Of a DNA stretch of 64,000 nucleotides, positions 3,305 through 56,890 are shown one piece after another. The number at the start of each line of letters is the position of its first letter. Position 1 is the stretch's first letter. The notes beneath the pieces were generated by a model. It was not told where the DNA came from and made no database searches. It saw nothing but the letters and a program-made list of their open reading frames with translations. Location of the stretch: assembly GCA_041660565.1 (NCBI GenBank), contig JBAZWC010000002.1:20315-84314 (forward strand). Reading direction: 5' to 3'. Origin of the DNA: Patescibacteria group bacterium. GTDB taxonomy: Bacteria > Patescibacteriota > UBA1384 > CAJBMM01. The position numbers and the translations under genes were made by a program.

Positions 3305-4021
3305 ATGTCCGGACACTCTAAATGGGCCACCACCAAACATCAGAAAGCCGTTACCGACGCCAGACGTGGAGCGGCGTTTACCAAAATTGCCAATATGATC
3401 ACCGTAGCCGCACGTGAAGGTGGCGATGTGGAATTTAATTTCAAACTGCGCCTGGCGGTGGAAAAAGCCAAAGCGGCCAGTATGCCCAAAGACAACATTG
3501 AACGAGCAATTGTGCGCGGATCGGGCAAAGGTGATGGAGCCAATAAATTAGAAGAGCTGACCTACGAGGCCTACGGCCCAGGCGGATCTGCCATGATTAT
3601 CACCGCTTTGACTGATAATAAACTTAGAACATATACCGACATTCGGGCGATAATGAACAAGGCGAACGGCCGCATTGCCGAAGCTGGTTCGGTGATGTAC
3701 TTGTTTAAGCATAGTGGCGAGATTATCGTTTCGCACGCACCGGAAAAATCAGACGAAGTACAGCTAATTGCCATAGACCAAGGCGCAGACGATGTTGAAA
3801 GCGATGAAGGGCTAACCCGCGTCATCACCGCCGTACCGGATCTGCAAAAAATCCGTCAGGGTCTACTTGATGCGGGATTGACGGTGGATGACGCCAAGTT
3901 GCAATGGATCGCCAAAACTCCGCATATTTTATCAGATGAAGATTTAGCAAAATTAGATAGATTAATTGAACTATTAGATGAACTAGACGATGTCACCGAA
4001 GTAGCAACAAACGTTGGATAG
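3305..4021 (+). CDS. yebC: YebC/PmpR family DNA-binding transcriptional regulator
   Basis: N-terminus MSGHSKWATTKHQKA is the family signature. RBS AAGGAAGGAG lies 6 nt before the ATG at 3305; the longer GTG-3284 version in the ORF track is unlikely. Confidence 0.85.
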   Translation: MSGHSKWATTKHQKAVTDARRGAAFTKIANMITVAAREGGDVEFNFKLRLAVEKAKAASMPKDNIERAIVRGSGKGDGANKLEELTYEAYGPGGSAMIITALTDNKLRTYTDIRAIMNKANGRIAEAGSVMYLFKHSGEIIVSHAPEKSDEVQLIAIDQGADDVESDEGLTRVITAVPDLQKIRQGLLDAGLTVDDAKLQWIAKTPHILSDEDLAKLDRLIELLDELDDVTEVATNVG

Positions 4022-4128
4022 TAAGGGCGTTTAGGGGGCTTGGGGGAGTTAGGGTCATTGGGAGAGCCAAATGGTTCCCCAAAACCCCTAACCACCCTAA
4101 AATCCCTAACGCCTTTCGAATTTTTGAC

Positions 4129-4168
4129 AAAAGAAAACGCCCCGTGCCATACAGGCCACGGGAGCGTT
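4129..4168 (-). terminator. rho-independent terminator (GC hairpin CCCGTGGCC..GGCACGGGG + TTTTCTTT on minus strand), copy 1 of a duplicated 39-nt unit
   Basis: A near-identical 39-nt sequence recurs at 4494-4532. It lies directly downstream of minus-strand gene 4181..4408. Confidence 0.55.
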
Positions 4169-4180
4169 AGTGCGGGCGGG

Positions 4181-4408
4181 CTACTGCTCTGCCAGATACG
4201 CGGTGTATTCCCGCGCGTCCAGATCATAGGTCAGGATGCACCTGTCTCGGTTACCCGGAGTCAGGCTGCAATGTCGGGTAGTAGCGCCGATGGCGCTTGC
4301 GGGCGGTTCCACGCCGATGGGGGCGGGGACAACTGGTCGTCCTTGGAACGCACTCTTGACGCCCGTACCATCTGGGTGCCAAAGAATGTAGGCGGGTATT
4401 GCTTGCAT
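4181..4408 (-). CDS. small hypothetical protein, paralog C of a tandem triplet (GC-rich islet)
   Basis: RBS GGGAGAAGG precedes the ATG. It shares the motif block PGNRDRCILTYDLDAREYTAY with EDCVLVKMGTVYFAYP and EDCILVPGPSGKTYFAFP in the two upstream genes. Confidence 0.5.
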   Translation of the reverse strand: MQAIPAYILWHPDGTGVKSAFQGRPVVPAPIGVEPPASAIGATTRHCSLTPGNRDRCILTYDLDAREYTAYLAEQ

Positions 4409-4493
4409 AACCTTCTCCCGTGATATGAATCATCAGTGCAAGTTGGCCTTACGCCTTTAGTGTCTGTTTTTATATTCGCTTTGTCAAATATGT

Positions 4494-4532
4494 AAAGAAA
4501 ACGCCCCGTGCCATACTGGCCACGGGGACGTT
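4494..4532 (-). terminator. rho-independent terminator, copy 2 of the duplicated 39-nt unit
   Basis: Same hairpin and T-tract, downstream of minus-strand gene 4547..4879. Confidence 0.55.
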
Positions 4533-4546
4533 GATAAAAGCGAAGC

Positions 4547-4879
4547 CTAACCTTTTGCCGGGTAGGCGAAGTAGACAGTTCCCATCTTTACCAGCACGCA
4601 GTCTTCCTCCTGCCCGACTGTGGGGTATTGTGTTCTGGTTTTGGCAGATAATCCCGTCGGGGGTTTGTCTCCAAGGCGGGACGGGAAAACCGCCGCCCGC
4701 AGGTAAAAGGCCTTGACAGGATCTGTACCGGGGTTGTGACGGAGATGGCGACGCGGGTTATCGCCCCACGTTACCGTAAAACGAACGACCAGTTGTTGAT
4801 CTTGCACCACCACGTCAGTCTCCTTTGTGGTTGGTGAAACGCCCCCGGCCGGGTGGCCGAAGGGCGTCGTCAAAGGCAT
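4547..4879 (-). CDS. small hypothetical protein, paralog B of the tandem triplet
   Basis: Its start abuts the stop of 4881..5282 (translational coupling). Conserved blocks TVTWGDNPRRH, AVFPSRLGDKPP and EDCVLVKMGTVYFAYP align with paralogs A and C. Confidence 0.5.
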   Translation of the reverse strand: MPLTTPFGHPAGGVSPTTKETDVVVQDQQLVVRFTVTWGDNPRRHLRHNPGTDPVKAFYLRAAVFPSRLGDKPPTGLSAKTRTQYPTVGQEEDCVLVKMGTVYFAYPAKG

Positions 4880-4880
4880 G

Positions 4881-5282
4881 CTACTTGGTTGGGTTCAACA
4901 CGATGGTGATTCGTCCGTCGGGGGACTTGGTGACCCCACCGAGCCGATATCCATCAGCGAGAGTCAGCACATTACCGTCGATATCGTATGTTGTGCATAC
5001 TATAACCTCGACGACATCACCCTGATCCATGACTGGGAAAGCGAAGTACGTCTTCCCGGATGGACCAGGGACAAGAATGCAATCCTCCGAATCCCCAACA
5101 ACAGGATACCTCTTTCGCGCCACCGCCCCGGAATCCTCTGGGGGGATATATCCGAGGTCCGACGGGAAAACGATCACGTTGCCGTGAGCTGCAACGCAGT
5201 TGCTGGAGCCAGGTTTCCTGTTCCAGCGCTCATTCTTCTGCCACGTGATAACGACACGAACACGGTCAGGTACTTCCGGCAT
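4881..5282 (-). CDS. small hypothetical protein, paralog A (longest, with a ~40 aa C-terminal extension)
   Basis: RBS AAAGGA lies 7 nt upstream of the ATG. It is GC-rich. The opposite-strand ORF 4827..5357 is judged an antisense artefact. Confidence 0.5.
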   Translation of the reverse strand: MPEVPDRVRVVITWQKNERWNRKPGSSNCVAAHGNVIVFPSDLGYIPPEDSGAVARKRYPVVGDSEDCILVPGPSGKTYFAFPVMDQGDVVEVIVCTTYDIDGNVLTLADGYRLGGVTKSPDGRITIVLNPTK

Positions 5283-5481
5283 TGCAATGTCCTTTCATTA
5301 ACTAAAATGAGAGGCTGCCACAGTATCAGTATTAGCATATTGTCACATATAGAATAGAATGTCAATATGTTATTCGTTCGGTTTAGAGGTTATACTACAA
5401 TGTGAAGTCGGATTAGGTTCGCCACAAAGCGGGCGGACATGCTAGTCCGCCCCTACACCACAGGGAAGAACAAGGAGGAAA

Positions 5482-8660: not shown

Positions 8661-8758
8661 AGCTCTACAATATCAGAAAACGGATGACGGAGGACAGAAG
8701 ACGGAGGACGGATCGTCGTTATTGTCAAACCCCCAACCCGTGAATCCGGAAAATAATA

Positions 8759-8882
8759 TGTCATTTCGACCCTAGGAGATTGTCAAATCGACTATGTTGG
8801 AGAAATCTGAGAAAGAATCCCTTCCAGTCTTTTCTGGAGATTTCTCCACCCTCGACTTGAATGTCGAGGAGTCGAAATGACA
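8759..8882. mobile_element. MITE-like element, family A copy 1 (TIR TGTCATTTCGAC / GTCGAAATGACA; inner IR GGAGAAATCT / AGATTTCTCC); flanked by outer IR GTGAATCCGGAAA / TTTCCGGATTCAC
   Basis: Perfect 12-bp terminal inverted repeats seen in sequence. The same architecture recurs at least 8 more times in the window. Confidence 0.7.
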
Positions 8883-9494: not shown

Positions 9495-9619
9495 TGTCAT
9501 TTCGACCCTGCGAGCATTGCCGAGCTGTTGGAGAAATCTCCAAGAAAAACCGGAAGGGATTCTTTTCTAAGATTTCTCCACCGTGGTCGGGTTGACACCC
9601 TTCCCGAGTCGAAATGACA
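9495..9619. mobile_element. MITE-like element, family A copy 2
   Basis: TGTCATTTCGACC...GAGTCGAAATGACA with internal GGAGAAATCTCC / AGATTTCTCCACC. Confidence 0.7.
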
Positions 9620-11619: not shown

Positions 11620-12315
11620 ATGAATAAACGCTTACTGTTCGCTGTGGTTGGTATTGTAGTTGTACTTGGTGCAATCGCAGTAGTGTTGATGGTGTTTGCA
11701 AACAAAAAAACTGGAACCACCACCCCAACCTCTTCGCCTAGTGCCGTATCCAGCACTTCCCCATCTGCTTCCTCCTCGGCTTCGGCATCCACAGATTCAA
11801 TTCTTTCCGCCGATACCAAATTAGCCACCGAGAACAGCATTAACCGTTTTGCTACCGCCAAAAGTCGAATTAGCCAATGGCCAATGTGGAAAAGCAACGC
11901 CACGTTTAGCGGGTTATTTATCTCGCTTAGCGCAACTCTAAAATTAGACAGCGCCAATGAAGTGTATGTTTTTGACTCAACCGATGACAACGCTAATCAC
12001 TACACTATTAGTATTTCGCAAAGTACCGGCAGTAGCTTAAGAGCAATCATCCCCAAATCCGATTATCAAGGCTCTTTGTTGGCTATCGACACCGCCTATT
12101 GGAAATCCAGCTATGTTGATGCGGTGCAAATTGCAGATCAGAATGGGGGCAGTCAATTTTCATCATCAAATAAAGTGACCGGGGTAGATGTAAATTTACA
12201 AAGATCTACACCGAATAATTATTTATATTGGATTGTTACCTACAAAACTGCGGATGCCGGAACTAGTTTGGTGGTAAAAATCGACGCAAACTCGAAAACG
12301 GTGGTTAAGGAATAA
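11620..12315 (+). CDS. hypothetical membrane-anchored protein (N-terminal TM helix, Ser/Thr-rich linker, ~130 aa C-terminal domain) inserted between dnaK and the dnaJ-like gene
   Basis: N-terminal hydrophobic helix LLFAVVGIVVVLGAIAVVLMV and a low-complexity TTTPTSSPSAVSSTSPSASSSASAST segment. Confidence 0.5.
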   Translation: MNKRLLFAVVGIVVVLGAIAVVLMVFANKKTGTTTPTSSPSAVSSTSPSASSSASASTDSILSADTKLATENSINRFATAKSRISQWPMWKSNATFSGLFISLSATLKLDSANEVYVFDSTDDNANHYTISISQSTGSSLRAIIPKSDYQGSLLAIDTAYWKSSYVDAVQIADQNGGSQFSSSNKVTGVDVNLQRSTPNNYLYWIVTYKTADAGTSLVVKIDANSKTVVKE

Positions 12316-12326
12316 CGAGCATTTTC

Positions 12327-12587
12327 TGTCATTTCGACCCGAGGAGGTTGTCAAATCGACTACGTTGGAGAAATCTCAAGAAAGAATCCTGTCAATAATT
12401 TTAAATTTTAAAGGCTAAATTTTAAATGAATAAGTACCGAATGATTAAATTTTAAATGGTTCCTTATTTAGTCATTTAAAAATTGGCAACCATTCATTTG
12501 AAATTAAAAATTGAAAATTAAAAATTCTAATTGTTTTAGATTTCTCCAACGTAGTCACGCTGCGGCGCTCCTCGGGTCGAGATGACA
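12327..12587. mobile_element. MITE-like element, family A copy 3, carrying a nested ~140-bp AT-rich element (family B) at about 12395-12537
   Basis: Family A termini are intact. The inserted block aattttaaattttaaaggctaaattttaaatgaataagtaccgaatgattaaattttaaatggttcc... is about 95% identical to the block at 20899-21035. Confidence 0.7.
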
Positions 12588-12667
12588 GGTTATGGAAGTT
12601 ATACGATCTTGAAAATATCCAATAAAAATTGTAGAATATCGGTATTACAACCAAGAAACGATTAATT

Positions 12668-13279
12668 GTGGCTAAAAATTATTATGAAATTTTAGGCGTT
12701 TCAAAATCTGCCTCGGCGGATGAAATTAAGCGTGCATATCGTAAATTAGCCCACGAGCATCACCCAGACAAGGGCGGTGGCGCCGCAGCCGAAGCCAAAT
12801 TCAAAGAAATTAACGAAGCTTATCAAGTTTTATCTAACCCGCAAAAACGCCAATCTTACGACACCTTTGGCACCGCCGATGGTGCGCAATTTGGTGGAGC
12901 AAACCCCGGCGGCTTCGGTGGATTTGGCAATATGGGCGGATTCGATTTTGGATCTGGCGGAGTACACTTTGGTGGCGGTTTGGGAGATCTGTTTGAGGGG
13001 ATTTTTGGTCAAACCATGGCGCAAGTCCAAGTTGAAGTTGAAATATCAATTACCCAAGCGGTTTTAGGCGATACCTTGCATTTACAAGTTGAGAACAAAA
13101 AAGTTGACCTAGCAATACCGGCTGGCACACAGGACGGCCATTCATTCCGTCTACGTGGGCAGGGGCGGGCGTTTCGTGGCGGGGTTGGTGATTTGATTGT
13201 CTCGGTTCGCATACGCGTGCCAAGACATCTTAGTCGCGAACAACGCGAACTATACGAAAAACTAAAAAATTTGGAATAA
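12668..13279 (+). CDS. J-domain co-chaperone (DnaJ-like; J domain + Gly/Phe-rich region + C-terminal domain, no CxxCxGxG zinc finger)
   Basis: GTG start. YYEILGV...HPDK J-domain signature and a [17 protein letters not shown] region. The absence of a zinc-finger motif was checked in the translation. Confidence 0.75.
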
Positions 13280-13323
13280 AGAAATAGCCGCCCACCATCT
13301 TTCGGGGGCGACTATTTGGCACA

Positions 13324-13533
13324 TCAGCGGCAGGTAAGCCACCGAAGAAGAGCTCGTGGCCCTTTGGCCGGGCTAGGAGGCGGGCCACAGCAAGGCCGAA
13401 GCAGGGAAACAGCGTACTGAAGTGCCTTGTCTTCAGTCATCTCGTGTTCCTTGGCGTATTCGGCCAGAATTCGGTGCGACCTTGCTGTCAGGCTGAGTCG
13501 GCTTTTTTCTGGCACCGACGCGGGCTTCGTCAT
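13324..13533 (-). CDS. ribbon-helix-helix (CopG/antitoxin-like) small protein, possibly decayed (low-complexity C-terminus), in a ~300-bp GC-rich islet
   Basis: N-terminal KSRLSLTARSHRILAEYAKEHEMTEDKALQYAV fits an RHH beta-strand plus two helices. The tail PCCGPPPSPAKGPRALL looks like read-through. GC-rich. Confidence 0.35.
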   Translation of the reverse strand: MTKPASVPEKSRLSLTARSHRILAEYAKEHEMTEDKALQYAVSLLRPCCGPPPSPAKGPRALLRWLTCR

Positions 13534-13597
13534 GACCGCATCTTTTCCCGCCTGATCGATTCGAGCAATGCGGCCAGCACTGATTTCCGCGAGCGCT

Positions 13598-13680
13598 TTG
13601 TCATTCCGGATTTAATCCGGAATCTATATAAAAAAAATTTCCATCATTTCAAATTTCAAATTTCAAATTGTAAATTATCT
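13598..13680. repeat. CCGGAATGACA-family hairpin (TGTCATTCCGGATTTAATCCGGAAT) followed by a (TTTCAAA)n heptamer tract
   Basis: Short palindromic element related to the family A TIR. The tttcaaatttcaaatttcaaattg tract recurs at about 6040, 20250, 50075 and 54265. Confidence 0.5.
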
Positions 13681-13782
13681 ACATTTAGTCAAAACCGTGC
13701 TTAAAAGAGAACCGTCCCCTATTTCTGCCTTTCCATCCTCCATTCTCTATCCTCTATCCTCCAAATGTGCTATAATAATAAT

Positions 13783-15150
13783 ATGAAATTAAAACTGGTA
13801 TATGCCCCAAGCCCAATCTTAAATCGCAAAGCCATCAGTGTGCCAAAAATCACGCCAGATTTGGTGAAGCTAGCCAACAATATGCTGGAAACAATGGTAG
13901 ATGGCAATGGCATCGGCCTAGCCGCTCCCCAAGTTAATCAGAATGTTCGTTTGATCGTTGTGGGAAATTCACCCGAAAAAGAGGGTGAAGATTACATCCC
14001 AACCACCATTTTATTCAATCCTAAAATCACCAAATTCTCGTCGGAAAAAGAGTTCGCCACCGAAGGCTGCTTGTCTATTCCGGGAATTACCGGCGTGGTT
14101 GAACGATCAAAGTCGATTACGGTTGAATTTCTTGATGTTGATGGAAATAAGCAAACGCTAAACGCAAGCGACTTGTATGCGCGCGTAATTCAACACGAGG
14201 TTGACCACTTGGAAGGCGTACTGTTCACTGATCGTCTAAGACACTATTCGATCGTCTTTTACGGCACCTCCGATTTTGCCGTACCGGCGCTAGAAGAGTT
14301 GCTTCTGCACCCACAGTTTGAACTTAAAGCGATTGTAACCGAAACCGATAAACCGGCTGGCCGCGGACATCAGCTAACCGCGTCACCGGTGAAAAAATTC
14401 GCCCTTGATAATAAAATCAAAGTGCTGCAGCCAATGTCGCTTAATTGCCAACACAAAAACGCCACCAAAGCCCAGTCAGCCACAAATGCTTTTCAAGACT
14501 TAAGCAAAATTAAGCCTGATTTTCAGATTGTGGCCAGTTATGGAAAAATCATCCCGCAAGAATTTTTGGATTTAGCAAAACTGATCAACCTAAATATTCA
14601 CCCATCACTATTGCCAAAATATCGTGGCGCCAGCCCAATTCAATCTGCCATTTTGCACGGTGAAACTCAAACCGGCGTGGCAGTGATGGCAATGGCGGCG
14701 GAAATGGACGCCGGCCCGGTAGTAACAATGTATCGCCACAATATCGACCCGGACGAAAATGCAGATCAGTTATCAAAACGGTTGGCTGAGTCTGGCGCAG
14801 CGCAACTGATTATGACCTTAGAGGAAATGTTAAGCAATAAATCGTCACTGTATGAGCAAGACCACACCAAAGCCACTTTCACCAAAAAGTTTGAAAGCGT
14901 GGACGGATTAATTGATTGGACCAAATCTCCAATAGATTTGCATAACTTTGTCCGCGCGCTAACCTCTAAACCGGGCGCGTTCACCCAGATTGATGGCCAA
15001 AACGTCAAAATACTGAAAACCCATTTGACAGAGGGTAAATTGACCATTGATTTGGTGCAATTACCCGGTAAAAAACCATTTTCAATGTCGGATTTGAAAA
15101 ATGGATATCCAAAAATGTATCAAGAATTATTAAATCAATCCAATAAGTAA
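13783..15150 (+). CDS. def-fmt: fused peptide deformylase (N-terminal ~160 aa) - methionyl-tRNA formyltransferase (C-terminal ~295 aa)
   Basis: One uninterrupted ORF. Def motifs GIGLAAPQV, EGCLS and QHEVDHLEG are followed without a stop by Fmt motifs IVFYGTSDFAVPALEEL and HPSLLPKYRGASPIQ. TATAAT lies 7 nt before the ATG at 13783 (leaderless?). Confidence 0.75.
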   Translation: MKLKLVYAPSPILNRKAISVPKITPDLVKLANNMLETMVDGNGIGLAAPQVNQNVRLIVVGNSPEKEGEDYIPTTILFNPKITKFSSEKEFATEGCLSIPGITGVVERSKSITVEFLDVDGNKQTLNASDLYARVIQHEVDHLEGVLFTDRLRHYSIVFYGTSDFAVPALEELLLHPQFELKAIVTETDKPAGRGHQLTASPVKKFALDNKIKVLQPMSLNCQHKNATKAQSATNAFQDLSKIKPDFQIVASYGKIIPQEFLDLAKLINLNIHPSLLPKYRGASPIQSAILHGETQTGVAVMAMAAEMDAGPVVTMYRHNIDPDENADQLSKRLAESGAAQLIMTLEEMLSNKSSLYEQDHTKATFTKKFESVDGLIDWTKSPIDLHNFVRALTSKPGAFTQIDGQNVKILKTHLTEGKLTIDLVQLPGKKPFSMSDLKNGYPKMYQELLNQSNK

Positions 15151-15209
15151 TTGACCTTTAGCCAAAAATAAGGTATAAATAAAGTAAAACAAGATAAGGA
15201 AAAGAAGAT

Positions 15210-15653
15210 ATGTTACGCATCCGCCTAGCCCGACGTGGCCAAAAACATCAGCCGACTTATCGCTTAGTAGTTGCTGAGCACACCCGACCAACCACCGGTA
15301 AGTTTGTCGAGATTTTGGGTCACTACATTCCGACCACAAAACCAAAAGTGTTCGAAGTTAAAAAAGACCGCGTTTTGTACTGGATTGAGCGCGGCGCTCA
15401 GCCAACCGATACTGTGCACAATTTGTTAGTTGATGCCGGTGTGTTGACAGACAAGCGCGACATTCGCTACGCTAAAGAAAAGATCGAGGAGGACAAAGCA
15501 GAGAAGGTCGAAAAAGTCGAAGACGCCGCTAAAGATACAGTGCCCGAGGAAGTTCCAGAAGAATCAGTTGATAATCCTGTTGAAGACGCCACCGAAGAAA
15601 AAGTTGAAGAAGCTACCGAAGAAGTAGTTGAACCCGACGCCAATCAGTCATAA
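15210..15653 (+). CDS. rpsP: 30S ribosomal protein S16 with an acidic C-terminal extension
   Basis: MLRIRLARRGQKHQPTYRLVVAE is the canonical S16 N-terminus. RBS AAGGAAAAG. Confidence 0.85.
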   Translation: MLRIRLARRGQKHQPTYRLVVAEHTRPTTGKFVEILGHYIPTTKPKVFEVKKDRVLYWIERGAQPTDTVHNLLVDAGVLTDKRDIRYAKEKIEEDKAEKVEKVEDAAKDTVPEEVPEESVDNPVEDATEEKVEEATEEVVEPDANQS

Positions 15654-15676
15654 ACATATCAAAAAATGGAGATAAG

Positions 15677-16066
15677 ATGACGCAAATGTCAGACCAAGAG
15701 TTCGTCCAAACGATCGTTAAGGCGATTGTGGATCACCCCGAGGATGTCAAAACCGAGCGTGTGGTAGACGACAAAGGAATTCTAATCTCGCTAACGGTAA
15801 ACGAAGAGGATATGGGAAAAATAATTGGTAAAGGCGGACGAACCGTCAACTCAATCCGCAAATTATTGCATGTTCTAGGTGCCAAAACCGACGAACGTAT
15901 CAATCTAAAAATTTACGAGCCAGATGGCCAAGAGGTTTCCACCCCAACCGAAGACTCAGTAGTTGAAGAACCAGAGAAAAAAGAGGAAGTCGTTGAAGAA
16001 AGCGCTCCAGAAAAACCCAAAGATGAGCCGAAACTAGACGATGTCCCAACCGACGTATTAGTCTAA
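15677..16066 (+). CDS. KH-domain RNA-binding protein (YlqC family), acidic tail
   Basis: GKIIGKGGRTVNSIRKL KH motif. Canonical position between rpsP and trmD. Confidence 0.7.
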   Translation: MTQMSDQEFVQTIVKAIVDHPEDVKTERVVDDKGILISLTVNEEDMGKIIGKGGRTVNSIRKLLHVLGAKTDERINLKIYEPDGQEVSTPTEDSVVEEPEKKEEVVEESAPEKPKDEPKLDDVPTDVLV

Positions 16067-16133
16067 CCATTAACAAAAAACAAAAAGCCACACCATATGT
16101 GGTTTTTTGTATAAAAATCATCACAATAAATCT

Positions 16134-16796
16134 ATGCAATTTGATATTTTAACTTTATTTCCCAAAATGTTTGATGGCGTTCTAAATGATAGCATTCTTA
16201 AACGTGCTCAGAACGATCAAATTATCGGCGTAAAAACACACAACCTACGCGATTTTGCGCCGGACAAACATCACACCGTAGACGACACACCGTACGGTGG
16301 CGGGACCGGTATGTTGCTAAAAGTGGACGTAGTAGATAAAGCGCTAAAAGAAATCATCAGAAATCAGATTGAACGACCAAAGGTTATTCTACTTTCGCCC
16401 CAAGGCAAACGTTTCAACGCCAGAATGGCACAAAATCTGGCCAAAGAAAAACAGTTGGTGCTAATTTGTGGGCATTATGAAGGTTTTGATCAGCGTATTC
16501 GAGATCATTTAATTGATATGCAAATTTCGATTGGTGATTACGTTTTAACCGGCGGTGAACTACCGGCGATGGTTTTAGTAGATGCGATTTCGCGATTTGT
16601 ACCGGGAGTTTTACCCGAGGGCGCACCAAACGATGATTCGTTTTCAATAAGGCAGGATGGCAAAGCGATGCTGGAATATCCGCAATACACCAAACCTGCC
16701 GAGTACAGTGGCTGGACAGTGCCAGATGTTTTGCTCTCAGGAGACCACGCCAAAATAGAACAATGGCGCAAATCTCAATTAAAAAAGATTAAATAG
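16134..16796 (+). CDS. trmD: tRNA (guanine37-N1)-methyltransferase TrmD
   Basis: MQFDILTLFPKMF start and the SPOUT-fold motifs. The longer 16107 start is disfavoured. Confidence 0.85.
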   Translation: MQFDILTLFPKMFDGVLNDSILKRAQNDQIIGVKTHNLRDFAPDKHHTVDDTPYGGGTGMLLKVDVVDKALKEIIRNQIERPKVILLSPQGKRFNARMAQNLAKEKQLVLICGHYEGFDQRIRDHLIDMQISIGDYVLTGGELPAMVLVDAISRFVPGVLPEGAPNDDSFSIRQDGKAMLEYPQYTKPAEYSGWTVPDVLLSGDHAKIEQWRKSQLKKIK

Positions 16797-16809
16797 AGAC
16801 ATCTCAATC

Positions 16810-16925
16810 TGTCATTTCGACTCGGGGAGTGCGTCGGCACGACCTCGGTGGAGAAATCTAAATAAAAATCCTTTCCAGTTCTTGACGGGATCTCTCGCCC
16901 CGCTTCGCGGTGGTGTCGAGATGAC
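16810..16925. mobile_element. MITE-like element, family A copy 4
   Basis: TGTCATTTCGACTCGG...GTCGAGATGACA with inner GGTGGAGAAATCT. Confidence 0.65.
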
Positions 16926-16965
16926 ATATTAAAAAAAAATCAGGGTAGCAAGTCTTACAGACCTA

Positions 16966-17661
16966 CTACCCGGGTTTGACCAGTAACTCCCGCCATGGAG
17001 ACTGCGTTAGATCCAGCGGTCCCAGATCCTCGTGGACCATTTCCCAGTGCACTCTGGTTAGCCCCTCCGCAATCGGGTTACCCTCTAGCACGGCGATCAT
17101 CATGGCAACGCATGCGGTCATTTTGGTTTCCATCGCACCGAGCCAGTTGCCAACGTCCACCAGCCAGAAGTACCGATACAGGTTACCATAATCGGTATCT
17201 GGGCTGCTGTAGGCATAATCGGCATAGTGAGACGGCTGTTGCCCATTAATGTCAAGCGCGAAACACAGCGCCATATTGTACATCGAATGAGCAGCGACAT
17301 GAACGATCGACGCGTTGAAGTCGTAATCCACAAACCGCTTTGGCAACAGCGATGCCACGGTTAACCGATTTGGGTAGCCTAACCCTCGTCGCACTTCATG
17401 ACAAGTACCCTGATGGTCCAAATAGACGTCGACGAATTGAGCGATAGCGCTGATTCGTCGTTGCACTTCTGGCCAATCATGAACCCGCTGCACGTGACGC
17501 GATATTTCCAGTTCTCCAGTGAGCACCGGATTCGACAGTAACGGGATGCGCGGACGGAACTTGGCTGCTACTTCGGGGTAGTATTGCAATATCCCCGCTC
17601 TTTCCGCGCCCAGCTGTAAAGCTTGTGCGCCTTTTGAGCGCACTGATGTCCATGCGCTCAT
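16966..17661 (-). CDS. hypothetical protein (231 aa) in a GC-rich islet; no family recognised
   Basis: RBS AAAGGAGAAAC upstream of the ATG. GC-rich composition contrasts with its neighbours. Confidence 0.5.
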   Translation of the reverse strand: MSAWTSVRSKGAQALQLGAERAGILQYYPEVAAKFRPRIPLLSNPVLTGELEISRHVQRVHDWPEVQRRISAIAQFVDVYLDHQGTCHEVRRGLGYPNRLTVASLLPKRFVDYDFNASIVHVAAHSMYNMALCFALDINGQQPSHYADYAYSSPDTDYGNLYRYFWLVDVGNWLGAMETKMTACVAMMIAVLEGNPIAEGLTRVHWEMVHEDLGPLDLTQSPWRELLVKPG

Positions 17662-17742
17662 TTCTGAGTTTCTCCTTTAGAGAAAGCAGAGGCTCCCGGA
17701 ACGTTATACAACGCGGGAGCCTTGAGTGTGCAGGAGCGGCGA

Positions 17743-17952
17743 TCAGCGGGGAATACGGCGCGGGCCATGGGGCATGTTCGGCCTCTTGCCGGCGGTGAAG
17801 CCGGCGGCGGAATCCGTCGTGACCGGCACCCCGCTGTGGGTGCCTCCGAGCCCCCACGGCTTCCGTTCCGCGATCTCGGCGTCGCGAAGCGCGACGTACT
17901 CGTCTCGGGATATCTGACCGTTGTCCAGCTTCTCACGAAGATTGCTAGCCAT
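17743..17952 (-). CDS. small SHOCT-like domain protein (69 aa; start at the internal ATG with RBS GGAAGGAG)
   Basis: MASNLREKLDNGQISRDEYVALRDAEIAERK resembles the short C-terminal SHOCT motif. It is followed by a GGCTCCCG...CGGGAGCC hairpin. The longer 110-aa ORF version is disfavoured. Confidence 0.4.
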   Translation of the reverse strand: MASNLREKLDNGQISRDEYVALRDAEIAERKPWGLGGTHSGVPVTTDSAAGFTAGKRPNMPHGPRRIPR

Positions 17953-18126
17953 CTCGATCCGACTCCTTCCAGAGAATGTGTGCCGCGATTGCCGGATGCG
18001 GCACAAATGATGGGTTCGCCCGGAGCCTGTCTGACGAAGCTCCAGCGTATGCATATATTGTATCAAAAATTTCAATACTTGTCAATAGCTGAAAAAGATG
18101 TTATGGTAGAAGTCACAATATAGTTC

Positions 18127-18192
18127 TCGGACACCAAGTGTCCTCGAACAAGAAATGTTACTTTCTCGTTCGAGCGTAAGCGAGAACTACCG
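18127..18192 (+). promoter_or_regulatory. uvrB 5' region with nested palindromes: GGACAC-caa-GTGTCC and CTCGAACaAGAAA-tgtta-cTTTCTcGTTCGAG
   Basis: 13-bp arms with 2 mismatches. The arm ends CGAAC/GTTCG echo Gram-positive LexA half-sites. A CGAACAAG octamer also lies upstream of dinB at about 36868-36890. Confidence 0.35.
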
Positions 18193-18211: not shown

Positions 18212-20167
18212 ATGACCAAGTTTGAATTACATGCCCCATATTCGCCATCGGGCGACCAACCAAAAGCGATTAATAATCTAACCGCCAACTTAAGTGCGGG
18301 CAAAAAACATCAAACCTTACTAGGCGTTACCGGATCGGGTAAAACTTACACCATTGCCAACATCATCAATAACGTCCAAAAACCCACGCTGGTAATCGCC
18401 CACAACAAAACGCTGGCGGCGCAATTAGCCAGTGAATTTCGCACCTTTTTCCCAAACAACGCGGTGCATTATTTTGTCTCGTTTTACGATTACTATCAGC
18501 CCGAAGCCTACATCCCCACGTCCGACACTTACATTGAAAAAGATTCGACGATAAACGACGAGATCGATCGCTTGCGCAACGCCGCCACTCAAGCACTAAT
18601 GACGCGTAAAGACGTTATTATTGTGGCGTCGGTGTCGTGTATTTACGGTTTGGGATCACCTGACATTTACAAAACCGCGGCGATTCCACTGAGCGTTGGT
18701 GAGCAGATTGGGCAGCAAAACCTGATCCGTCGGCTGAACGATATTTTATACGAACGCAACGATTATGATTTGAAACGGGGCACTTTTCGGGTAAAAGGTG
18801 ATGTGGTGGAACTATTTCCCGCGTATGACGATAAAACCATCCGTATTACTTTTGACAACAATCAAATTGAATCAATTTACACCGTAAATCAGATTGATGG
18901 CAATAAGTTAGAACAATTCAGTCAGATTGATATCTTTCCGGCGCGTCATTTCTTAACCGAATCTCGCGATCTCACCCCAACTTTAAAACAGATAGAATCA
19001 GATATGGAACGTGAAGTAAAACTATTCGAGAAGGAAGGACGATTAATAGAGGCGCAGCGTCTACGAGAACGCACCACTTTTGATTTAGAACTAATTCGCG
19101 AAACCGGCATCTGCAACGGCATCGAAAACTATTCACGCTATTTTGATATGCGCCCGGCCGGCTCCCCTCCATCGGTGTTGCTGGATTATTTCCCGTCGGA
19201 TTATCTGTTAGTCATAGACGAATCGCATATGACCGTGCCGCAAATCCGCGGGATGTACAATGGAGACAAAGCGCGAAAAGACACTTTGATTCATTATGGA
19301 TTTAGACTAAAAGCCGCACGAGATAATCGACCATTAAAGTTCGATGAGTTCTCAGACCGCATTAATCAGGTTATCTACACCTCCGCCACCCCAAACGATT
19401 ACGAAAAAGAGTTGTCGGGATCAGATGGAATTGTGGAACAGATTATTCGCCCTACCGGCTTGGTTGACCCGGTAATCGAAGTCAAGCCAACCACCAACCA
19501 GGTTGACGATTTAATGCATCAAATTAATTTACGCGTCAAAAACGGGCAACGGGTTTTGGTAACCACTTTGACAAAACGACTAGCCGAGGATTTAACCGAA
19601 TATCTGTCTGAAACCGGCATCAAAGTGCAATACCTGCATTCAGATGTGGCCACGTTGGATCGAACTGAAATTTTAGCAAATCTGCGTAACGGCAAGTTTG
19701 ACGTTTTGATCGGTATTAACTTGCTTCGGGAAGGGTTAGATTTACCGGAGGTAGGGTTGGTGGCAATTCTGGACGCAGACCGAGAAGGTTTCTTACGTAA
19801 CGCTACCAGTTTTATTCAAACCATCGGACGAGCGGCGCGAAATGTGAATGGCCTGGTGATTATGTATGCCGACACCGTGACAAAATCGATGAAAACCGCC
19901 ATTGACGAGACTAATCGTCGGCGTCAAATTCAGATGGATTACAACCTAAAACACCATATTACGCCGCAATCAATCGCCAAATCACTTCATTCGGCTCTAG
20001 TTTTTGAAGAAAAAATTGAGGTAGATGAGATTCCGGAAAATCTACCAAAAGAAGAACGTGCTCGATTAATTAAATCTTACTTACAAAAGATGGAAAAAGC
20101 GGCCGGAAATTTGGAGTTCGAAAAAGCCGCTGATCTCCGCGATAAAATCGCACAACTACGAGGTTAA
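18212..20167 (+). CDS. uvrB: excinuclease ABC subunit B
   Basis: GVTGSGKT Walker A, helicase motifs, and a C-terminal UvrB/UvrC interaction helix (EFEKAADLRDKIAQL). RBS AAAGGAAAT before the ATG at 18212. Confidence 0.95.
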   Translation: MTKFELHAPYSPSGDQPKAINNLTANLSAGKKHQTLLGVTGSGKTYTIANIINNVQKPTLVIAHNKTLAAQLASEFRTFFPNNAVHYFVSFYDYYQPEAYIPTSDTYIEKDSTINDEIDRLRNAATQALMTRKDVIIVASVSCIYGLGSPDIYKTAAIPLSVGEQIGQQNLIRRLNDILYERNDYDLKRGTFRVKGDVVELFPAYDDKTIRITFDNNQIESIYTVNQIDGNKLEQFSQIDIFPARHFLTESRDLTPTLKQIESDMEREVKLFEKEGRLIEAQRLRERTTFDLELIRETGICNGIENYSRYFDMRPAGSPPSVLLDYFPSDYLLVIDESHMTVPQIRGMYNGDKARKDTLIHYGFRLKAARDNRPLKFDEFSDRINQVIYTSATPNDYEKELSGSDGIVEQIIRPTGLVDPVIEVKPTTNQVDDLMHQINLRVKNGQRVLVTTLTKRLAEDLTEYLSETGIKVQYLHSDVATLDRTEILANLRNGKFDVLIGINLLREGLDLPEVGLVAILDADREGFLRNATSFIQTIGRAARNVNGLVIMYADTVTKSMKTAIDETNRRRQIQMDYNLKHHITPQSIAKSLHSALVFEEKIEVDEIPENLPKEERARLIKSYLQKMEKAAGNLEFEKAADLRDKIAQLRG

Positions 20168-20177
20168 TATTTTCACG

Positions 20178-20339
20178 CGTCATTTCGACTCGGGGAGAGT
20201 GTCGACTCGACCACGGTGGAGAAATCTGAGAAAGAATCCGTTCCATCATTAAAAATTTCAAATTTCAAATTTCAAATTCTCGCTTAAAATTCCTCCACCC
20301 TCGAGACAATCCGCCAGCTGACGGACGTCGGGGATGACA
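20178..20339. mobile_element. MITE-like element, family A copy 5 (with an internal TTTCAAA heptamer tract)
   Basis: CGTCATTTCGACTCGG...GTCGGGGATGACA. Confidence 0.65.
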
Positions 20340-22658: not shown

Positions 22659-25298
22659 TTAACATTTAGAGAAACCACAATTTTCACATTTTTGGCATCC
22701 TTCAATGAATCGAAATGTCGCCATGCCACAATCCGGGCAGATATCGGCGTTTCCTTTTCTCTCTGGCTGGTCCATTTGCACCGTTTCGGTTTTTTCGGGC
22801 ATTACTTCGATACCTTGCTTGTCAGATTCATGCTCTTTTAGCACCTTTGACACAGCATCGGCTAATGAACGAATGCGCATCGCCCCAAAACCGGTTGACC
22901 CTGCGCCACCAATACCGGTTAGCTGTTCAACCACATTTTGAGCAATACGCTCAGAAGTGTAGTGGGTAGGGATACGGAAGGTAAGGGAAATTAATCGTCC
23001 AATTGCTTCTGCGTCGGCAGTGATATCTGAACCGGCATGCCCCACGTTAATAAATACCTCAAAAATATTTTGATTCTCGTCTTCGTTAATAGAAATAAAC
23101 GCTTTACCCACCGGCGTATTTACTTTATAGGTGCGACCGGTTAAAACGTGAGGACGCGGGCGTAGGGTAATCGGTTGGCTATCGGCTAAATCGATAACCG
23201 AGGCACTGGTCTTGCCCGCCATTTTATCGTAATAAGAATTCTCTTTTTTAGTCTCTAAAATCTGCTTTTCTCGGCTACCATCGCGATAAATTGTGATACC
23301 TTTGCAATTTGTCTCGTAAGCCATCCAATACGCCGTGCGAACATCTGCTACCGTAGCGCTGTTTGAAAAGTTAATAGTCTTGGAGATGGCATTGTCAGTA
23401 TATTTTTGCAACGCGGCCTGCATCTTTAGATGCCACTCTGGCGCAATATCCCCAGCCACCACAAACACCTTCTTTAATTCTGCCGGAATTTGCTCCAGCG
23501 CTTGAATTGAGCCGTTATTACTCTGAATTTTCTCTAAAATGTCATCGTTGTGTAATCCATGGTCCTTAAGTGCCTGCAAAAAGTGCGGACTGGTCTGAAA
23601 AATTCGTTTTCCTTCGATGGTATTTTTGGCGTACGCAAGGGCGAACAACGGTTCGCAACCAGACGAACAATCCGCCAACATAGAAATTGTACCGGTAGGG
23701 GCAATGGTGGTTCTGGCGCCGTTACGCGGTTTGATTTCGCCTTTTTTATTGTAAATTGAATCCGGATACAATGGGAACGGCCCGCGCTCTTTTGCTAACA
23801 GTACCGAAGCGTTATCGGCCTCTTTTTGCATAAATTTCATTAGCTTTTCGCCAACTTTTAACCCCTCATCGGTATTATATCCAACACCTAACAGCAACAA
23901 CGCATCGGCAAAACCCATTATTCCAAGCCCAATACGGCGAATGCTGCGAGTCATTTTTCGCACTTCATCTATTGGATATTCATTCATATCTAACACATCG
24001 TCCAAAAATCGGGTGGCGGTATGGATTGCCTCTCTCATTCCGTCCCAATCAAAATCTTTTCCATTCACATATTTTGCCACGTTAATACTACCCAACGTAC
24101 AAGCGTCATAAGGTAACAGAGGTTGTTCTCCGCACGGATTTGTAGCTTCAATTTGGCCGAGTTTCGGTGTTGGATTTGCACGAGATTCGTTAATACGATC
24201 CAAAAAGATCATGCCCGGATCGCCGTAGTTCCACGCTAATCGGGTAATTAAATCGAACACTTTTTTGGCATTAAGATGACCGGCGATGGTTTTGTCATGC
24301 GGATTAACTAAATCATAACCATAACCGGGTCGGCTTTCGTTGCACCACTCTCTCAGTCGCTCAACCACTTTGTCCAACAATACCGTTTTAAGATCAATAT
24401 CTCGGGTTTGGTGCGCGGTTCTGGCTTCTTCAATAATCTGATCATAATCGATATCTTTTTCGTATGTTGCCGGCAAACCCTCGGCATCAATTTTAACTTG
24501 ATTAAAGAACTGTTCGGTTACCGTAACCGAGATATTAAAGTTGGTCAGCGAAAACTCATCCACTTTATAAATGGAGAACAGTAAGATATCTGGGTGATTG
24601 TAATTCAAAATACCCATATTGGCGCCACGGCGCACCCCACCTTGACGAACCGACGAAGCGATATCGTTATACATCTGCATAAACGAGATGGGGCCGGTGG
24701 AATGACCCTTGGATGATTTTATCACCGTGCCTTTTGGACGCAGGCGTGAAAACGAAAAACCGGTGCCACCGCCAGATTTGTGAATTTTGGCCATGTCGGT
24801 AGCGGTTTTCAAAATACTGGTTAAATTATCTTCTATTGGCAACACGAAACAGGCTGAAAGTTGCTGTTCCGGTTTGCCCGCATTTAACATCGTTGGAGTG
24901 TTCGGCATAAACTGCTGACATGCCATCATTGTATAATATTTTCTAGCGGTATCTAAATGCGATTTTTCCGGATTTTCTCCAAATTGGCGCTCGGCAGTGG
25001 CTACATTATAAGCAACCCGCCAAAACATATCCCGAGCGGACTCTTGTGGATTTCCCTGCTCGTCACGAACCGCATAACGAGTCTTACCAATATACCACGC
25101 GTTATCACTTAAACTAGGCTCAGGTAGGTCAGCTGGAGCTTTGGGGATGTCTTTACCAATTTGGTACAACTGCTCAACCGATGACGGCGCAGTAACGATG
25201 TCGTCCTTAAACAGTTCGGTGGGTTGTTCTTGATTTGTGGGCATATCGCGCCTCCTTTGTTTTACTGTTTTGTTGCCATTTCGAGGTATTCGCATCAT
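22659..25298 (-). CDS. nrdJ: adenosylcobalamin-dependent ribonucleotide reductase (class II, NrdJ) with a C-terminal CxxC zinc ribbon
   Basis: 879 aa. Active-site NPCGEQPL and the motif HKSGGGTGFSFSRLRPKG. C-terminal CPDCG...CQKCENCG. Confidence 0.85.
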   Translation of the reverse strand: MMRIPRNGNKTVKQRRRDMPTNQEQPTELFKDDIVTAPSSVEQLYQIGKDIPKAPADLPEPSLSDNAWYIGKTRYAVRDEQGNPQESARDMFWRVAYNVATAERQFGENPEKSHLDTARKYYTMMACQQFMPNTPTMLNAGKPEQQLSACFVLPIEDNLTSILKTATDMAKIHKSGGGTGFSFSRLRPKGTVIKSSKGHSTGPISFMQMYNDIASSVRQGGVRRGANMGILNYNHPDILLFSIYKVDEFSLTNFNISVTVTEQFFNQVKIDAEGLPATYEKDIDYDQIIEEARTAHQTRDIDLKTVLLDKVVERLREWCNESRPGYGYDLVNPHDKTIAGHLNAKKVFDLITRLAWNYGDPGMIFLDRINESRANPTPKLGQIEATNPCGEQPLLPYDACTLGSINVAKYVNGKDFDWDGMREAIHTATRFLDDVLDMNEYPIDEVRKMTRSIRRIGLGIMGFADALLLLGVGYNTDEGLKVGEKLMKFMQKEADNASVLLAKERGPFPLYPDSIYNKKGEIKPRNGARTTIAPTGTISMLADCSSGCEPLFALAYAKNTIEGKRIFQTSPHFLQALKDHGLHNDDILEKIQSNNGSIQALEQIPAELKKVFVVAGDIAPEWHLKMQAALQKYTDNAISKTINFSNSATVADVRTAYWMAYETNCKGITIYRDGSREKQILETKKENSYYDKMAGKTSASVIDLADSQPITLRPRPHVLTGRTYKVNTPVGKAFISINEDENQNIFEVFINVGHAGSDITADAEAIGRLISLTFRIPTHYTSERIAQNVVEQLTGIGGAGSTGFGAMRIRSLADAVSKVLKEHESDKQGIEVMPEKTETVQMDQPERKGNADICPDCGMATFRFIEGCQKCENCGFSKC

Positions 25299-25300
25299 TT

Positions 25301-25426
25301 TGTCATTTCGACCCTATGAGAGTGTCAACTCGAATATGTTGGAGAAATCTGAGAAAGAATCCGTTTTCCAATTCTCTTTTGAGATTTCTCCACCCTCGAG
25401 ACAATGCTCGAGGAGTCGAAATGACA
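25301..25426. mobile_element. MITE-like element, family A copy 7
   Basis: TGTCATTTCGACCCTATG...GAGTCGAAATGACA. Near-identical inner repeats to copy 1. Confidence 0.7.
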
Positions 25427-43460: not shown

Positions 43461-43603
43461 ATCAGAAAATAGATGATCGATTTTTCGCGTTCGAACGGAG
43501 AGAGAACTAATCAGAACAACGCCGGAAAGTTCTCGTTTCACTCGAACAAGAATGTATAACCTGTCATTCCGGAAAAAATCTCTGAATCTATATAAAAAAA
43601 GAA

Positions 43604-43643
43604 GAAGCGCGGGTGGCCGGTTTGGCCCTCGCGCTCTTTTGAG
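43604..43643. terminator. bidirectional rho-independent terminator (GCGCGGGTGGCC-ggtttg-GGCCCTCGCGC with T-tracts on both strands)
   Basis: Seen in sequence. It separates the DUF2207 gene (+) from the paralog array (-). Confidence 0.55.
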
Positions 43644-43647
43644 TTGA

Positions 43648-43907
43648 TCACGCCCCATGACGATGACGCCGATAGTCGATGAGGCAAGGAATGAACCACA
43701 CAAGCGCCAACCAGCGACCCCTGTATGTCTTAGCCGCAAACATGTGGATCATGACGGATAGACAATAGGCCGCGCCCAGCATCACGATTCCGATCGAGAT
43801 CCAACCGCGAGACCAGAGCGCCCCCATATGATGCCATCCCCCGATTACCCACAGTATGATCGCGGCCATCACCGGCGCGATCCACGACTTCCAGCATGCG
43901 AGCATCC
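43648..43907 (-). CDS. small 2-TM membrane protein, paralog 3 of a tandem triplet (GC-rich islet)
   Basis: ATG at 43907 preceded by GGGAGG. Shares G(A/S)AYC...M...W(P/F) blocks with the two upstream genes. Confidence 0.5.
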
Positions 43908-44162
43908 TCAGGCCTCCCGTGAACAACGTCGCTTGCGGCGATCATTGAGCCACAGCTTGGGCCAAACAAAAGCCGTGAAAACCCGTTTGGGATCAACGGT
44001 GCCGATAAACGCCATCGTTATCGAGCAATATGCCGAGCCGGCGACATACAACACCAGTAGCAACCATCGGCCGTCGTTCCATCGCGAGGATACAAGATCC
44101 CAGCCTGCAACCAGGAAGAACACGAACCAGAGCAGAGACACCACCTTCATTCGCCAAGTCAT
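43908..44162 (-). CDS. small 2-TM membrane protein, paralog 2
   Basis: RBS GGGAGGG. YVAGSAYCSITMAFIG...FVWPKLWLNDRR aligns with paralogs 1 and 3. Its stop abuts the start of paralog 3. Confidence 0.5.
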   Translation of the reverse strand: MTWRMKVVSLLWFVFFLVAGWDLVSSRWNDGRWLLLVLYVAGSAYCSITMAFIGTVDPKRVFTAFVWPKLWLNDRRKRRCSREA

Positions 44163-44201
44163 TGCGTTTCCCTCCCGGGAGTCAAAACGGTAGTGGCCGT
44201 G

Positions 44202-44456
44202 TTAGGCCGATCGGTAATGATTGCGTATTTGCAGGTAGACGGTGTATGGCCACAAAAACGCCTCGATCCTGCCCTTGTCGTCGTCAGCACCAAGCATACA
44301 TATCACCGTCATTGGAACGTATATGCACGCCAACGCGCCCACCACTTGCCAGAACGCCTGACAATCAAGGATGCCGTTGCACCATCCGTTATCCGCAACC
44401 AACAGTGCAACAAGAACGAGAGCTGGAGCAGCCAAAGGCCAACTACGCACAAGCAT
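44202..44456 (-). CDS. small 2-TM membrane protein, paralog 1
   Basis: RBS AAGGAGGG. ALACIYVPMTVICMLG...FLWPYTVYLQIR aligns with the other two. Confidence 0.5.
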   Translation of the reverse strand: MLVRSWPLAAPALVLVALLVADNGWCNGILDCQAFWQVVGALACIYVPMTVICMLGADDDKGRIEAFLWPYTVYLQIRNHYRSA

Positions 44457-44609
44457 TGTACACCCTCCTTGCCGCAGAGTAGGGAAGTGCTGACCATAAT
44501 ATACCCTAAATTGAGGTAAATGTCACGGCATTCCCTCGTTATCCTTCAAAATCCTTAGTAATCCCTTAGTCCGACGAGACGGTCGAGTGGGGGATTGTCA
44601 AAAAACTTT

Positions 44610-56405: not shown

Positions 56406-56801
56406 ATGAAAGGATACCACGCTAATATAGAGGAATTAACCCGAGCAAACGCCACATTTCGAACCGTTTTGTACACCTCGAAAGGTTTACAGTTGGTAGT
56501 GATGAGTCTGAAGCCAAGCGAAGAAATTGGGATGGAAGTGCATGATGTCGATCAATTTTTTCGTTTTGAAGTTGGCAGCGGCAAAGTAGTGATAGATCAA
56601 AATGAGTACAGCGTAGGTGATGGCGATGTTATTGTAGTACCTGCCGGAGCGCAACATAATGTGATTAATTTGTCAGCCGAAGCAGAGCTAAAGTTGTACA
56701 CGCTTTACTGCCCGCCACACCACACCGATGGCACGGTGCATCAAACCAAAGCAGACGGCGAAGCAGATTCCGAACATTTCGACGGCAAAACTACTGAGTA
56801 G
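56406..56801 (+). CDS. cupin-domain protein
   Basis: G(X)5HXH...E...G / PAGAQHNVIN two-motif cupin pattern. Confidence 0.6.
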   Translation: MKGYHANIEELTRANATFRTVLYTSKGLQLVVMSLKPSEEIGMEVHDVDQFFRFEVGSGKVVIDQNEYSVGDGDVIVVPAGAQHNVINLSAEAELKLYTLYCPPHHTDGTVHQTKADGEADSEHFDGKTTE

Positions 56802-56811
56802 AGTTCGTTGT

Positions 56812-56845
56812 TGTCATTCCGAACTAGATCCGGAATCTATACGCA
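56812..56845. repeat. CCGGAATGACA-family hairpin (TGTCATTCCGAACTAGATCCGGAATCTATA)
   Basis: Seen in sequence. Confidence 0.5.
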
Positions 56846-56851
56846 TAAGAA

Positions 56852-56880: not shown

Positions 56881-56890
56881 TGCGGTAAAC

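Follow-up and report, generated by a model that had tools for sequence, protein, structure and literature searches.

A vertically inherited two-gene operon at the trmD/uvrB junction of Patescibacteria, encoding a protein with a predicted cyanophycin synthetase N-domain-like fold and a small basic partner

The window analysed here, a stretch of 64,000 nucleotides (nt) from a Patescibacteria contig (JBAZWC010000002.1, positions 20,315 to 84,314, assembly GCA_041660565.1), carries between trmD and uvrB a GC-rich islet with two minus-strand open reading frames (ORFs) of 69 and 231 amino acids (aa). These two genes form a single self-contained operon, at positions 16934-18085 of the window, which a clade of Patescibacteria has inherited vertically and which in most cases occupies this same place between trmD and uvrB. 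The pair is previously undescribed and belongs to no known system, and the large protein represents a new and very rare family, with about 11 sequences in the ~15 billion proteins searched, which, to judge by predicted structure, comes closest to the N domain of cyanophycin synthetase (CphA). Overall, the best explanation is a vertically inherited operon encoding a CphA-N-like, metal-binding and peptide-binding protein together with a basic partner, a reading to which we give a probability of about 0.5.

The transcription unit is complete: a promoter is followed by the 69-aa ORF, a hairpin, a ribosome-binding site (RBS), the 231-aa ORF and a terminator (Table 1). Four promoter-like sites were observed in the region, against 1.6 expected from shuffled sequences. 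The spacer between the two genes measures 81 nt and holds both a GC-rich hairpin and a second, RBS-pairing one, whilst the 5′ arm of the terminator opens with the GGG (Gly) that ends the 231-aa ORF and with its UAG stop codon. In composition, positions 16943-18056 reach 56.6% GC, compared with a mean of 43.6% (standard deviation 3.6) for windows of the same size; this is the second-highest GC peak in the 64 kb, and 0.45% of same-size windows are equally GC-rich. The source genome is a Patescibacteria of ~43.7% GC, whose NCBI product names read "Patescibacteria group bacterium". GC content at the first, second and third codon positions (GC1/2/3) gives a coding-like profile for both the large ORF (0.61/0.41/0.60) and the small one (0.66/0.56/0.79). 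A preliminary description of this DNA had reported just such an islet after trmD, with both minus-strand ORFs and a good RBS for the larger, and all of these are present, the RBS as AAGGAG upstream of the large gene. It had also placed a terminator-like hairpin between the ORFs; the hairpin is there, although without the U tract of a canonical terminator.

Could these nevertheless be spurious ORFs in GC-rich non-coding DNA? The segment does hold long ORFs in several frames, and a k-mer-filtered search of 5.8 billion proteins gave self matches only, from the same genome. However, the large protein has full-length homologues down to E 5e-37, the codon-position GC pattern is coding-like, the AlphaFold models are confident and the gene pair is kept in 11 loci, so that the chance of a spurious frame is virtually nil: homologues, alignment and structure model together refute it. 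The preliminary description had raised this same doubt, and the ORF proves to be both conserved and coding-like. Its start has been annotated in two ways, with NCBI calling a protein of 186 aa from an internal GTG (MFA6082301.1), and both JGI and Logan calling 231 aa. We consider the NCBI call truncated, because the homologue alignments begin at residue 2-5 of the 231-aa form and the N-terminal strand of that form is part of the predicted sheet, in agreement with the JGI and Logan calls; the position of the RBS likewise favours the longer form.

An exhaustive phmmer search over 1.84 billion representative proteins recovered seven full-length remote homologues (25-39% identity, E 5e-37 to 3e-5), and a subsequent profile search three more. 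Overall, there are some ten remote homologues of 20-39% identity, 237-252 aa long and alignable over their full length, all of them on Patescibacteria-type contigs. Two metagenome scans with subfamily alignments found no further members, 80 other trmD loci are without one, and a single copy is present in the 64 kb of the window. In every locus with upstream DNA present, an ORF of 58-72 aa precedes the large gene, giving positional counterparts of the small ORF in nine other loci, as well as a truncated one in L005, where the contig begins inside the ORF and leaves its 3′ end. The trmD-uvrB junction, for which a comparison with relatives had been proposed in the preliminary description, has the same arrangement in six other contigs, with a TrmB-family regulator gene, lying between def-fmt and rpsP, and def-fmt itself farther along where the contig reaches; the window is without TrmB. 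In three more distant genomes (L001, L002, L004) the cassette sits directly upstream of rplS, and in 10 of the 11 loci it adjoins one or other side of the classical trmD-rplS junction.

Syntenic relatives are 60-64% identical to the window in TrmD and 69-71% in UvrB, with 20-30% for the large protein, and the identity matrices are congruent: 83-85% in TrmD goes with 69-76% in the large protein, 72-76% with 49-51%, and 60-69% with 14-30%. As the divergence of the large protein thus parallels that of TrmD at about twice the rate, we conclude that the operon was inherited vertically. Moreover, the GC content and GC3 of the cassette exceed those of its neighbours in 10 of the 11 loci, and its high GC3 is therefore a standing, old property of the cassette and not the mark of a recent transfer. 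Recent horizontal import, which had been proposed for the pair together with its islet, was rejected on account of this recurrent GC3 and of the congruence with TrmD, and the shared junction in the six other contigs speaks the same way.

The absence of rplS, which had been expected to follow trmD, is also genuine: it is found nowhere in the 64-kb window, and it lies within 5 kb of trmD in 44 of 80 fetched trmD loci. An insertion is not the cause, however, since rplS is never found after trmD in the 13 other Patescibacteria loci, which makes this a trait of the phylum and not a consequence of the insert. An ancestral order trmD-cassette-rplS might account for a pair that adjoins trmD in some genomes and rplS in others, but it fits poorly, as the orientations are not explained by a single inversion and as none of those 13 loci has rplS within 5 kb.

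All 11 members keep five residues of the large protein unchanged (C87, H121, H125, P222 and W223), and T5, G23, Y28, L81, P154, F165, K180 and A190 are nearly invariant. The protein has no match in Pfam, NCBIfam, PADLOC or, by phmmer and profile, the Protein Data Bank (PDB), which bears out the earlier statement that it has no recognisable family; a sub-threshold match to DUF6139 in two of the 11 members (best E 8e-4) led nowhere, and that family is unmentioned in the literature. AlphaFold2, supplied with the family alignment, produced an α+β model of the window protein with a predicted local distance difference test (pLDDT) score of 81 and a predicted template modelling (pTM) score of 0.84, and a second model, of the 21% identical homologue P0011, with scores of 88 and 0.89. 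When searched with Foldseek against the PDB, no match was obtained at E 0.001 or better, and the CphA chain 7lgj_A ranked third with a probability of 0.75. On these predicted structures, the fold of the 231-aa protein is closest to that of the cyanophycin synthetase N domain, with C87 in the loop after a first helix (helix A), and H121 and H125 one turn apart on a second (helix B).

These positions recall the N domain of CphA1, which holds a cryptic metallopeptidase-like site with the motif C-x19-HxxEH (Sharon et al. 2022, PMC9262961). In this site, the active-site helix (77-92) carries H79, E82 and H83, and a loop carries C59; the Cys and two His coordinate Zn, with H57 nearby, and H57 and E87 support H83 (PMC9262961). 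It cuts cyanophycin into primers, and an E82Q mutant is inactive (PMC9262961). We infer that C87, H121 and H125 would likewise constitute a Cys + HxxxH metal site, probably for Zn, as in the CphA1 N domain. The family Cys falls 6 residues past helix A, and C59 of CphA1 ~5 past the corresponding helix, as read by eye from the sequence; a His precedes the Cys by 1-5 residues in 7 of the 11 members, and the second position past the Cys is commonly acidic. An hhalign comparison, for which the CphA N-domain sequences were taken from the PDB, aligned only helix C (residues 170-190 with 117-137), in matching register and with a score that was not significant. We also considered a link to the nearby def-fmt gene through Cys/His/His chemistry and set it aside, as peptide deformylase is absent from the fold matches.

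The small protein of the window starts with a helix-Gly-helix motif, LDNGQISRDEY, and continues in a basic Gly/Pro/Arg-rich tail that ends in Arg. This N-terminal motif and a basic tail of the same kind, which is expected to be disordered, are all that the small proteins share. Arg is the last residue in 8 of 10, encoded by CGC, CGU, CGA or AGG and followed by UGA, UAA or UAG; the use of four Arg codons and three stop codons implies that the terminal Arg is conserved at the level of the amino acid. The 69-aa protein had been called SHOCT-like, and the motif can indeed be seen by eye: six of 10 aligned sequences have the Gly, and nine have an acidic residue or Gln. The resemblance is weak and sub-threshold, however: Pfam scores the SHOCT match at 14.4 bits against a cut-off of 27 (E 0.03), and weak matches at E<1 occur in 2 of 10 partners.

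Two RNA features accompany the pair. A GC-rich hairpin of 8-13 bp without a U tract lies in the inter-gene spacer of 59-81 nt in all 11 loci, its stem differing in sequence from one locus to another, with compensatory changes in 7 of 9 consensus pairs. At the other end, the large gene finishes in a GGGUAG(C)...(G)CUACCC hairpin in every locus, usually followed by a U run. Eight of the 11 large proteins end in Gly, with the codon GGG in all eight and then UAG or UAA, because the terminator stem opens with this codon and the stop; the members without a terminal Gly stop 0-3 codons upstream of the same hairpin. A C-terminal Gly serving as a conjugation handle, whether ubiquitin-like or CD-NTase-like, was therefore rejected, the Gly being a by-product of the stem.

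How might the two proteins work together? If the metal site holds, the large protein could be a free-standing, metal-dependent binder of an extended peptide. Lacking the catalytic Glu of HxxEH, it would either only bind its ligand or use another base, perhaps the acidic residue that follows the Cys at two positions' distance. As ligand, the simplest candidate would be the disordered, Arg-ended tail of the co-encoded small protein, and the large protein may act on, or be regulated by, its basic partner. By analogy, a C-terminal Arg, with its side chain and free α-carboxylate, would resemble each β-Asp-Arg unit of cyanophycin, whilst the conserved spacer hairpin would hold the small protein in excess over the large one. 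We posit, as a tentative and on balance doubtful scenario, that the large protein is an ancestor-like, free-standing relative of the CphA1 N domain, which recognises and perhaps trims the Arg-ended tail of its partner as CphA1-N grips β-Asp-Arg. If true, this would be a previously unknown two-component peptide-recognition system, restricted to a clade of Patescibacteria, and would hint at how cyanophycin synthetase came by its cryptic third active site.

Several results weigh against a CphA-N-like, metal- and peptide-binding protein with a basic partner. Aligned by hhalign, the family and the CphA N domains gave a probability of 0.3, which is no signal; Pfam returns no CphA-N match at E up to 1, and the PDB profile search does not retrieve CphA. 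The equivalence of C87, H121 and H125 with the CphA1 ligands is drawn from the order of secondary-structure elements and from sequences read by eye. All 11 members have A, T, V or N where HxxEH has its Glu, which means that the protein does not act as a peptidase in the way known for CphA. The tails of the small proteins, whose interaction with the large one is hypothetical, are highly divergent. Finally, with ~11 known members, the conservation statistics are thin.

What else could such a pair be? One idea is a translation- or ribosome-associated lineage factor: the small protein would bind rRNA or ribosomes and the large one would be its partner or an assembly factor, possibly compensating for RimM. 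Ten of the 11 distinct loci lie by translation genes (rpsP-KH-trmD in seven including the window, rplS in three), the rpsP-KH-trmD string is without rimM, and the small protein is basic and disordered, as in many ribosomal-protein extensions. Yet in seven loci the operon runs towards trmD under a promoter and terminator of its own, and so is not co-transcribed with it; a divergence about twice that of TrmD, down to 14-30% identity, would be unusual for ribosome components; and neither protein matches an RNA-binding family. As neighbourhood alone is weak evidence in genomes of this kind, we regard this idea as unlikely. A little less likely still is a pair akin to those of ribosomally synthesised and post-translationally modified peptides (RiPPs), in which the small ORF would be the precursor, with a helical leader and a hypervariable core, and the large one a metal-dependent tailoring enzyme or leader peptidase. 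The gene order of lanthipeptide and lasso-peptide operons is precursor, hairpin, enzyme, and the order here resembles it; the small proteins do combine a conserved N-terminus with a hypervariable C-terminus, and the putative Zn site is related to a peptidase site. Against this, no locus has a transporter, an immunity gene or a second enzyme nearby, the tails (35-45 aa, Gly/Arg/Pro-rich) show none of the Cys/Ser/Thr patterns that mark the known RiPP classes, the large protein has lost the catalytic Glu of the peptidase motif, and the locus is fixed among housekeeping genes.

The preliminary description had raised the possibility of an imported toxin/regulator module, that is, a toxin-antitoxin or defence pair made up of a small antitoxin or regulator and a larger toxin, carried in with the GC-rich islet. 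Part of this stands, as strand, promoter, terminator and recurrent pairing do make the two genes one module. A small upstream gene and a larger downstream one under their own promoter are typical type II architecture, GC and codon use are atypical, both partners diverge fast, and neither belongs to a known family. The import is not supported: six other contigs have the pair in the same place, its phylogeny follows that of TrmD, the high GC3 in 10 of 11 loci leaves no signature of recent transfer, and no integrase or mobile-element gene adjoins. Nor is there evidence of a toxin or defence role: PADLOC, Pfam and NCBIfam contain no match, the SHOCT score is sub-threshold, the small protein has no recognisable DNA-binding fold, and the family is single-copy in the window and missing from 80 other trmD loci, which leaves the proposal quite improbable. 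A nuclease of the His-hydrophobic-His (HUH) type, or one associated with repetitive extragenic palindromic (REP) sequences, would use the metal site and the nearly invariant Tyr28 to cut the conserved hairpins or palindromic repeats, and seems to us highly improbable. The two His are spaced as HxxxH along a helix, whereas the HUH type has His-hydrophobic-His on a strand, and with either model CphA N domains obtain the higher score. The hairpins of the operon can be accounted for at the RNA level, as one contains the stop codon and runs into a stretch of U and the other lies between the cistrons, and in sequence they are unlike the repeat families of the window. For all four of these rivals there is no positive evidence beyond gene architecture or neighbourhood.

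Table 1. Features of the operon and its surroundings in the window, and arrangements of the cassette in related loci
Feature	Position	Strand	Remarks
Operon promoter-like site	18057-18085	-	TTGACA, 17 nt, TACAAT, TG before -10; 11/12 consensus matches (sigma-70-like)
uvrB promoter-like site	18079-18107	+	overlaps operon promoter back-to-back
Small ORF, 69 aa, MFA6082302.1	17743-17952	-	RBS GGAAGGAG 10 nt upstream of ATG
Inter-cistronic GC-rich hairpin GGCUCCCG...CGGGAGCC	17691-17721	-	without U tract; z -3.0
Small hairpin UUUCUCU-AAA-GGAGAAA	17669-17685	-	pairs RBS of 231-aa ORF; minimum-free-energy fold, window only
Large ORF, 231 aa	16966-17661	-	AAGGAG RBS upstream
Intrinsic terminator	16934-16971	-	13-bp stem GGGUAGUAGGUCU/AGACUUGCUACCC then U9; z -4.4
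Two inverted repeat copies TGTCATTTCGAC...GGAGAAATCT	16806-16927		long hairpin after trmD; 146-nt fold z -3.5
uvrB(-), small(+), homologue(+), trmD(-) KH rpsP	L003, L005, L006, L009, L012, L013		window's arrangement
Small, homologue, rplS co-directional	L001 9723-11385; L002 2-1325; L004 707-2291		rpmA upstream in L001, L004
Pair then Mfd-like gene	L007, L008		Mfd-like judged by eye

Ahead of the operon, the plus strand of the window carries a fused def-fmt gene, rpsP, a KH gene of the KhpA type and trmD, which ends at 16796; uvrB and dut lie on the other side of the operon. The rpsP-KH-trmD string without rimM and rplS occurs in the window (15150-16800) as well as in L003, L005, L009 and L012. 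The def-fmt fusion, which joins peptide deformylase and methionyl-tRNA formyltransferase in a single protein of 457-465 aa, is conserved in the relatives (window 13765-15150, plus strand; L003 7831-9228; L009 7136-8509), and both S16 and the KH protein (window 15210-16066) bear long acidic low-complexity C-terminal extensions, as do L19 and S16 in related genomes. Some relatives have an extra conserved small basic ORF of 58-61 aa, with the pattern '...LRNN.K...', between uvrB and the cassette (L009 3198-3374, L012 7333-7518, L010 82-258); it has no counterpart in the window, where the interval is ~260 nt. The uvrB leader contains an imperfect 12-bp palindrome, GTTCTCGGACAC-CAA-GTGTCCTCGAAC (18122-18150), which could be an operator or a leader hairpin, and the true uvrB start is likely the ATG at 18213 (MTKFEL...), not 18155.

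The left boundary of the islet, outside the operon, is set by repeat copies after trmD (16806-16866 plus an inverted partner; families D1, I4 and I7). The repeat is a ~60-nt palindromic element found at many gene ends in both orientations, with copies at 8742-8833, 9543-9619, 12310-12401, 12535-12591, 16793-16927, 20161-20252 and 25284-25426, and it also follows uvrB. It had been taken for a family A miniature inverted-repeat transposable element (MITE), yet it shows no sign of terminal inverted repeats with target duplications and behaves like a REP or terminator-type repeat. A second repeat family, TGTCATTCCGGA...TCCGGAATCTATA (at 13598, 38776 and 56811), edges other GC-rich islets. The window contains four more such islets (4001-5300, 13151-13600, 43601-44500 and 56701-57750; 53-59% GC compared with 43.7%), all of which hold minus-strand ORFs without a Pfam family. 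Two of the islets include tandem paralogues: in one these are the ORFs at 4547-4879 and 4881-5282 (42% identity, E 4e-17), and in the other a group of three small, membrane-like ones at 43648-44456, of which one pair matches at E 0.001. Segments rich in GC and bearing orphan genes seem to be a general feature of this genome; as the islet after trmD proved old, the others should not be assumed to be recent imports.

This adds to the Patescibacteria a conserved, lineage-specific operon with a testable hypothesis, namely metal binding by the large protein and its binding to the small partner. The direct biological reach is narrow, given that a family of ~11 sequences is very rare. Perhaps the wider lesson is one of caution: even an islet of unusual composition, full of orphan ORFs, may be of old standing and vertical descent, and since GC3 is high in 10 of 11 lineages here, a GC deviation alone is no proof of recent transfer.

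Among known systems, peptide deformylase has metal ligands made up of one Cys and two His on a helix, and zincins have the HxxxH spacing on a helix, and the large protein would share both of these traits. To the type II toxin-antitoxin systems the likeness lies in a two-gene operon with a small upstream protein with a disordered tail, a larger downstream partner and fast divergence; in contrast to them, the pair has no homology to any such family and is fixed in position, vertical, single-copy and free of mobile elements. The pattern [NRS]G[EQT]I[ST]xxE[FY], visible at the start of the small proteins, resembles the signature of SHOCT (PF09851; PMC3581485), a domain of two short amphipathic helices with a strongly conserved Gly in the loop that links them and a conserved Glu farther on (PMC3581485). 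Here, however, the motif is N-terminal in a free-standing protein of 58-72 aa, whereas 89% of SHOCT domains lie within 50 residues of the C-terminus (PMC3581485). With the CphA1/CphA2 N domain (PDB 7LGM, 7LGJ, 7TA5), the large protein would share the overall α+β fold and the order of its elements as modelled, from β1 and β2 through helix A, the H..C loop and helix B with its HxxxH to a β-hairpin and helix C. The differences are equally clear: the Cys-to-His spacing is 33 residues compared with 19 in CphA, some 60 helical residues are added at the C-terminus, and the family members are stand-alone proteins of 231-252 aa, each paired with a dedicated small gene, whereas the CphA N domain is fused to ATP-grasp (G) and Mur-ligase-like (M) domains. 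No cyanophycin gene is present among the called genes of the related loci or the window ORFs scanned. To our knowledge, the CphA-N domain has so far been seen only within cyanophycin synthetases. The CphA1 N domain was described without informative structural relatives, its peptidase site having been found only by biochemistry, and that site was set beside those of peptide deformylase and the inverted zincins (HxxEH; PMC9262961). Should the predicted fold and ligand set hold, the large protein of this Patescibacteria operon would be the first outside reference for how the CphA1 N domain and its active site arose.

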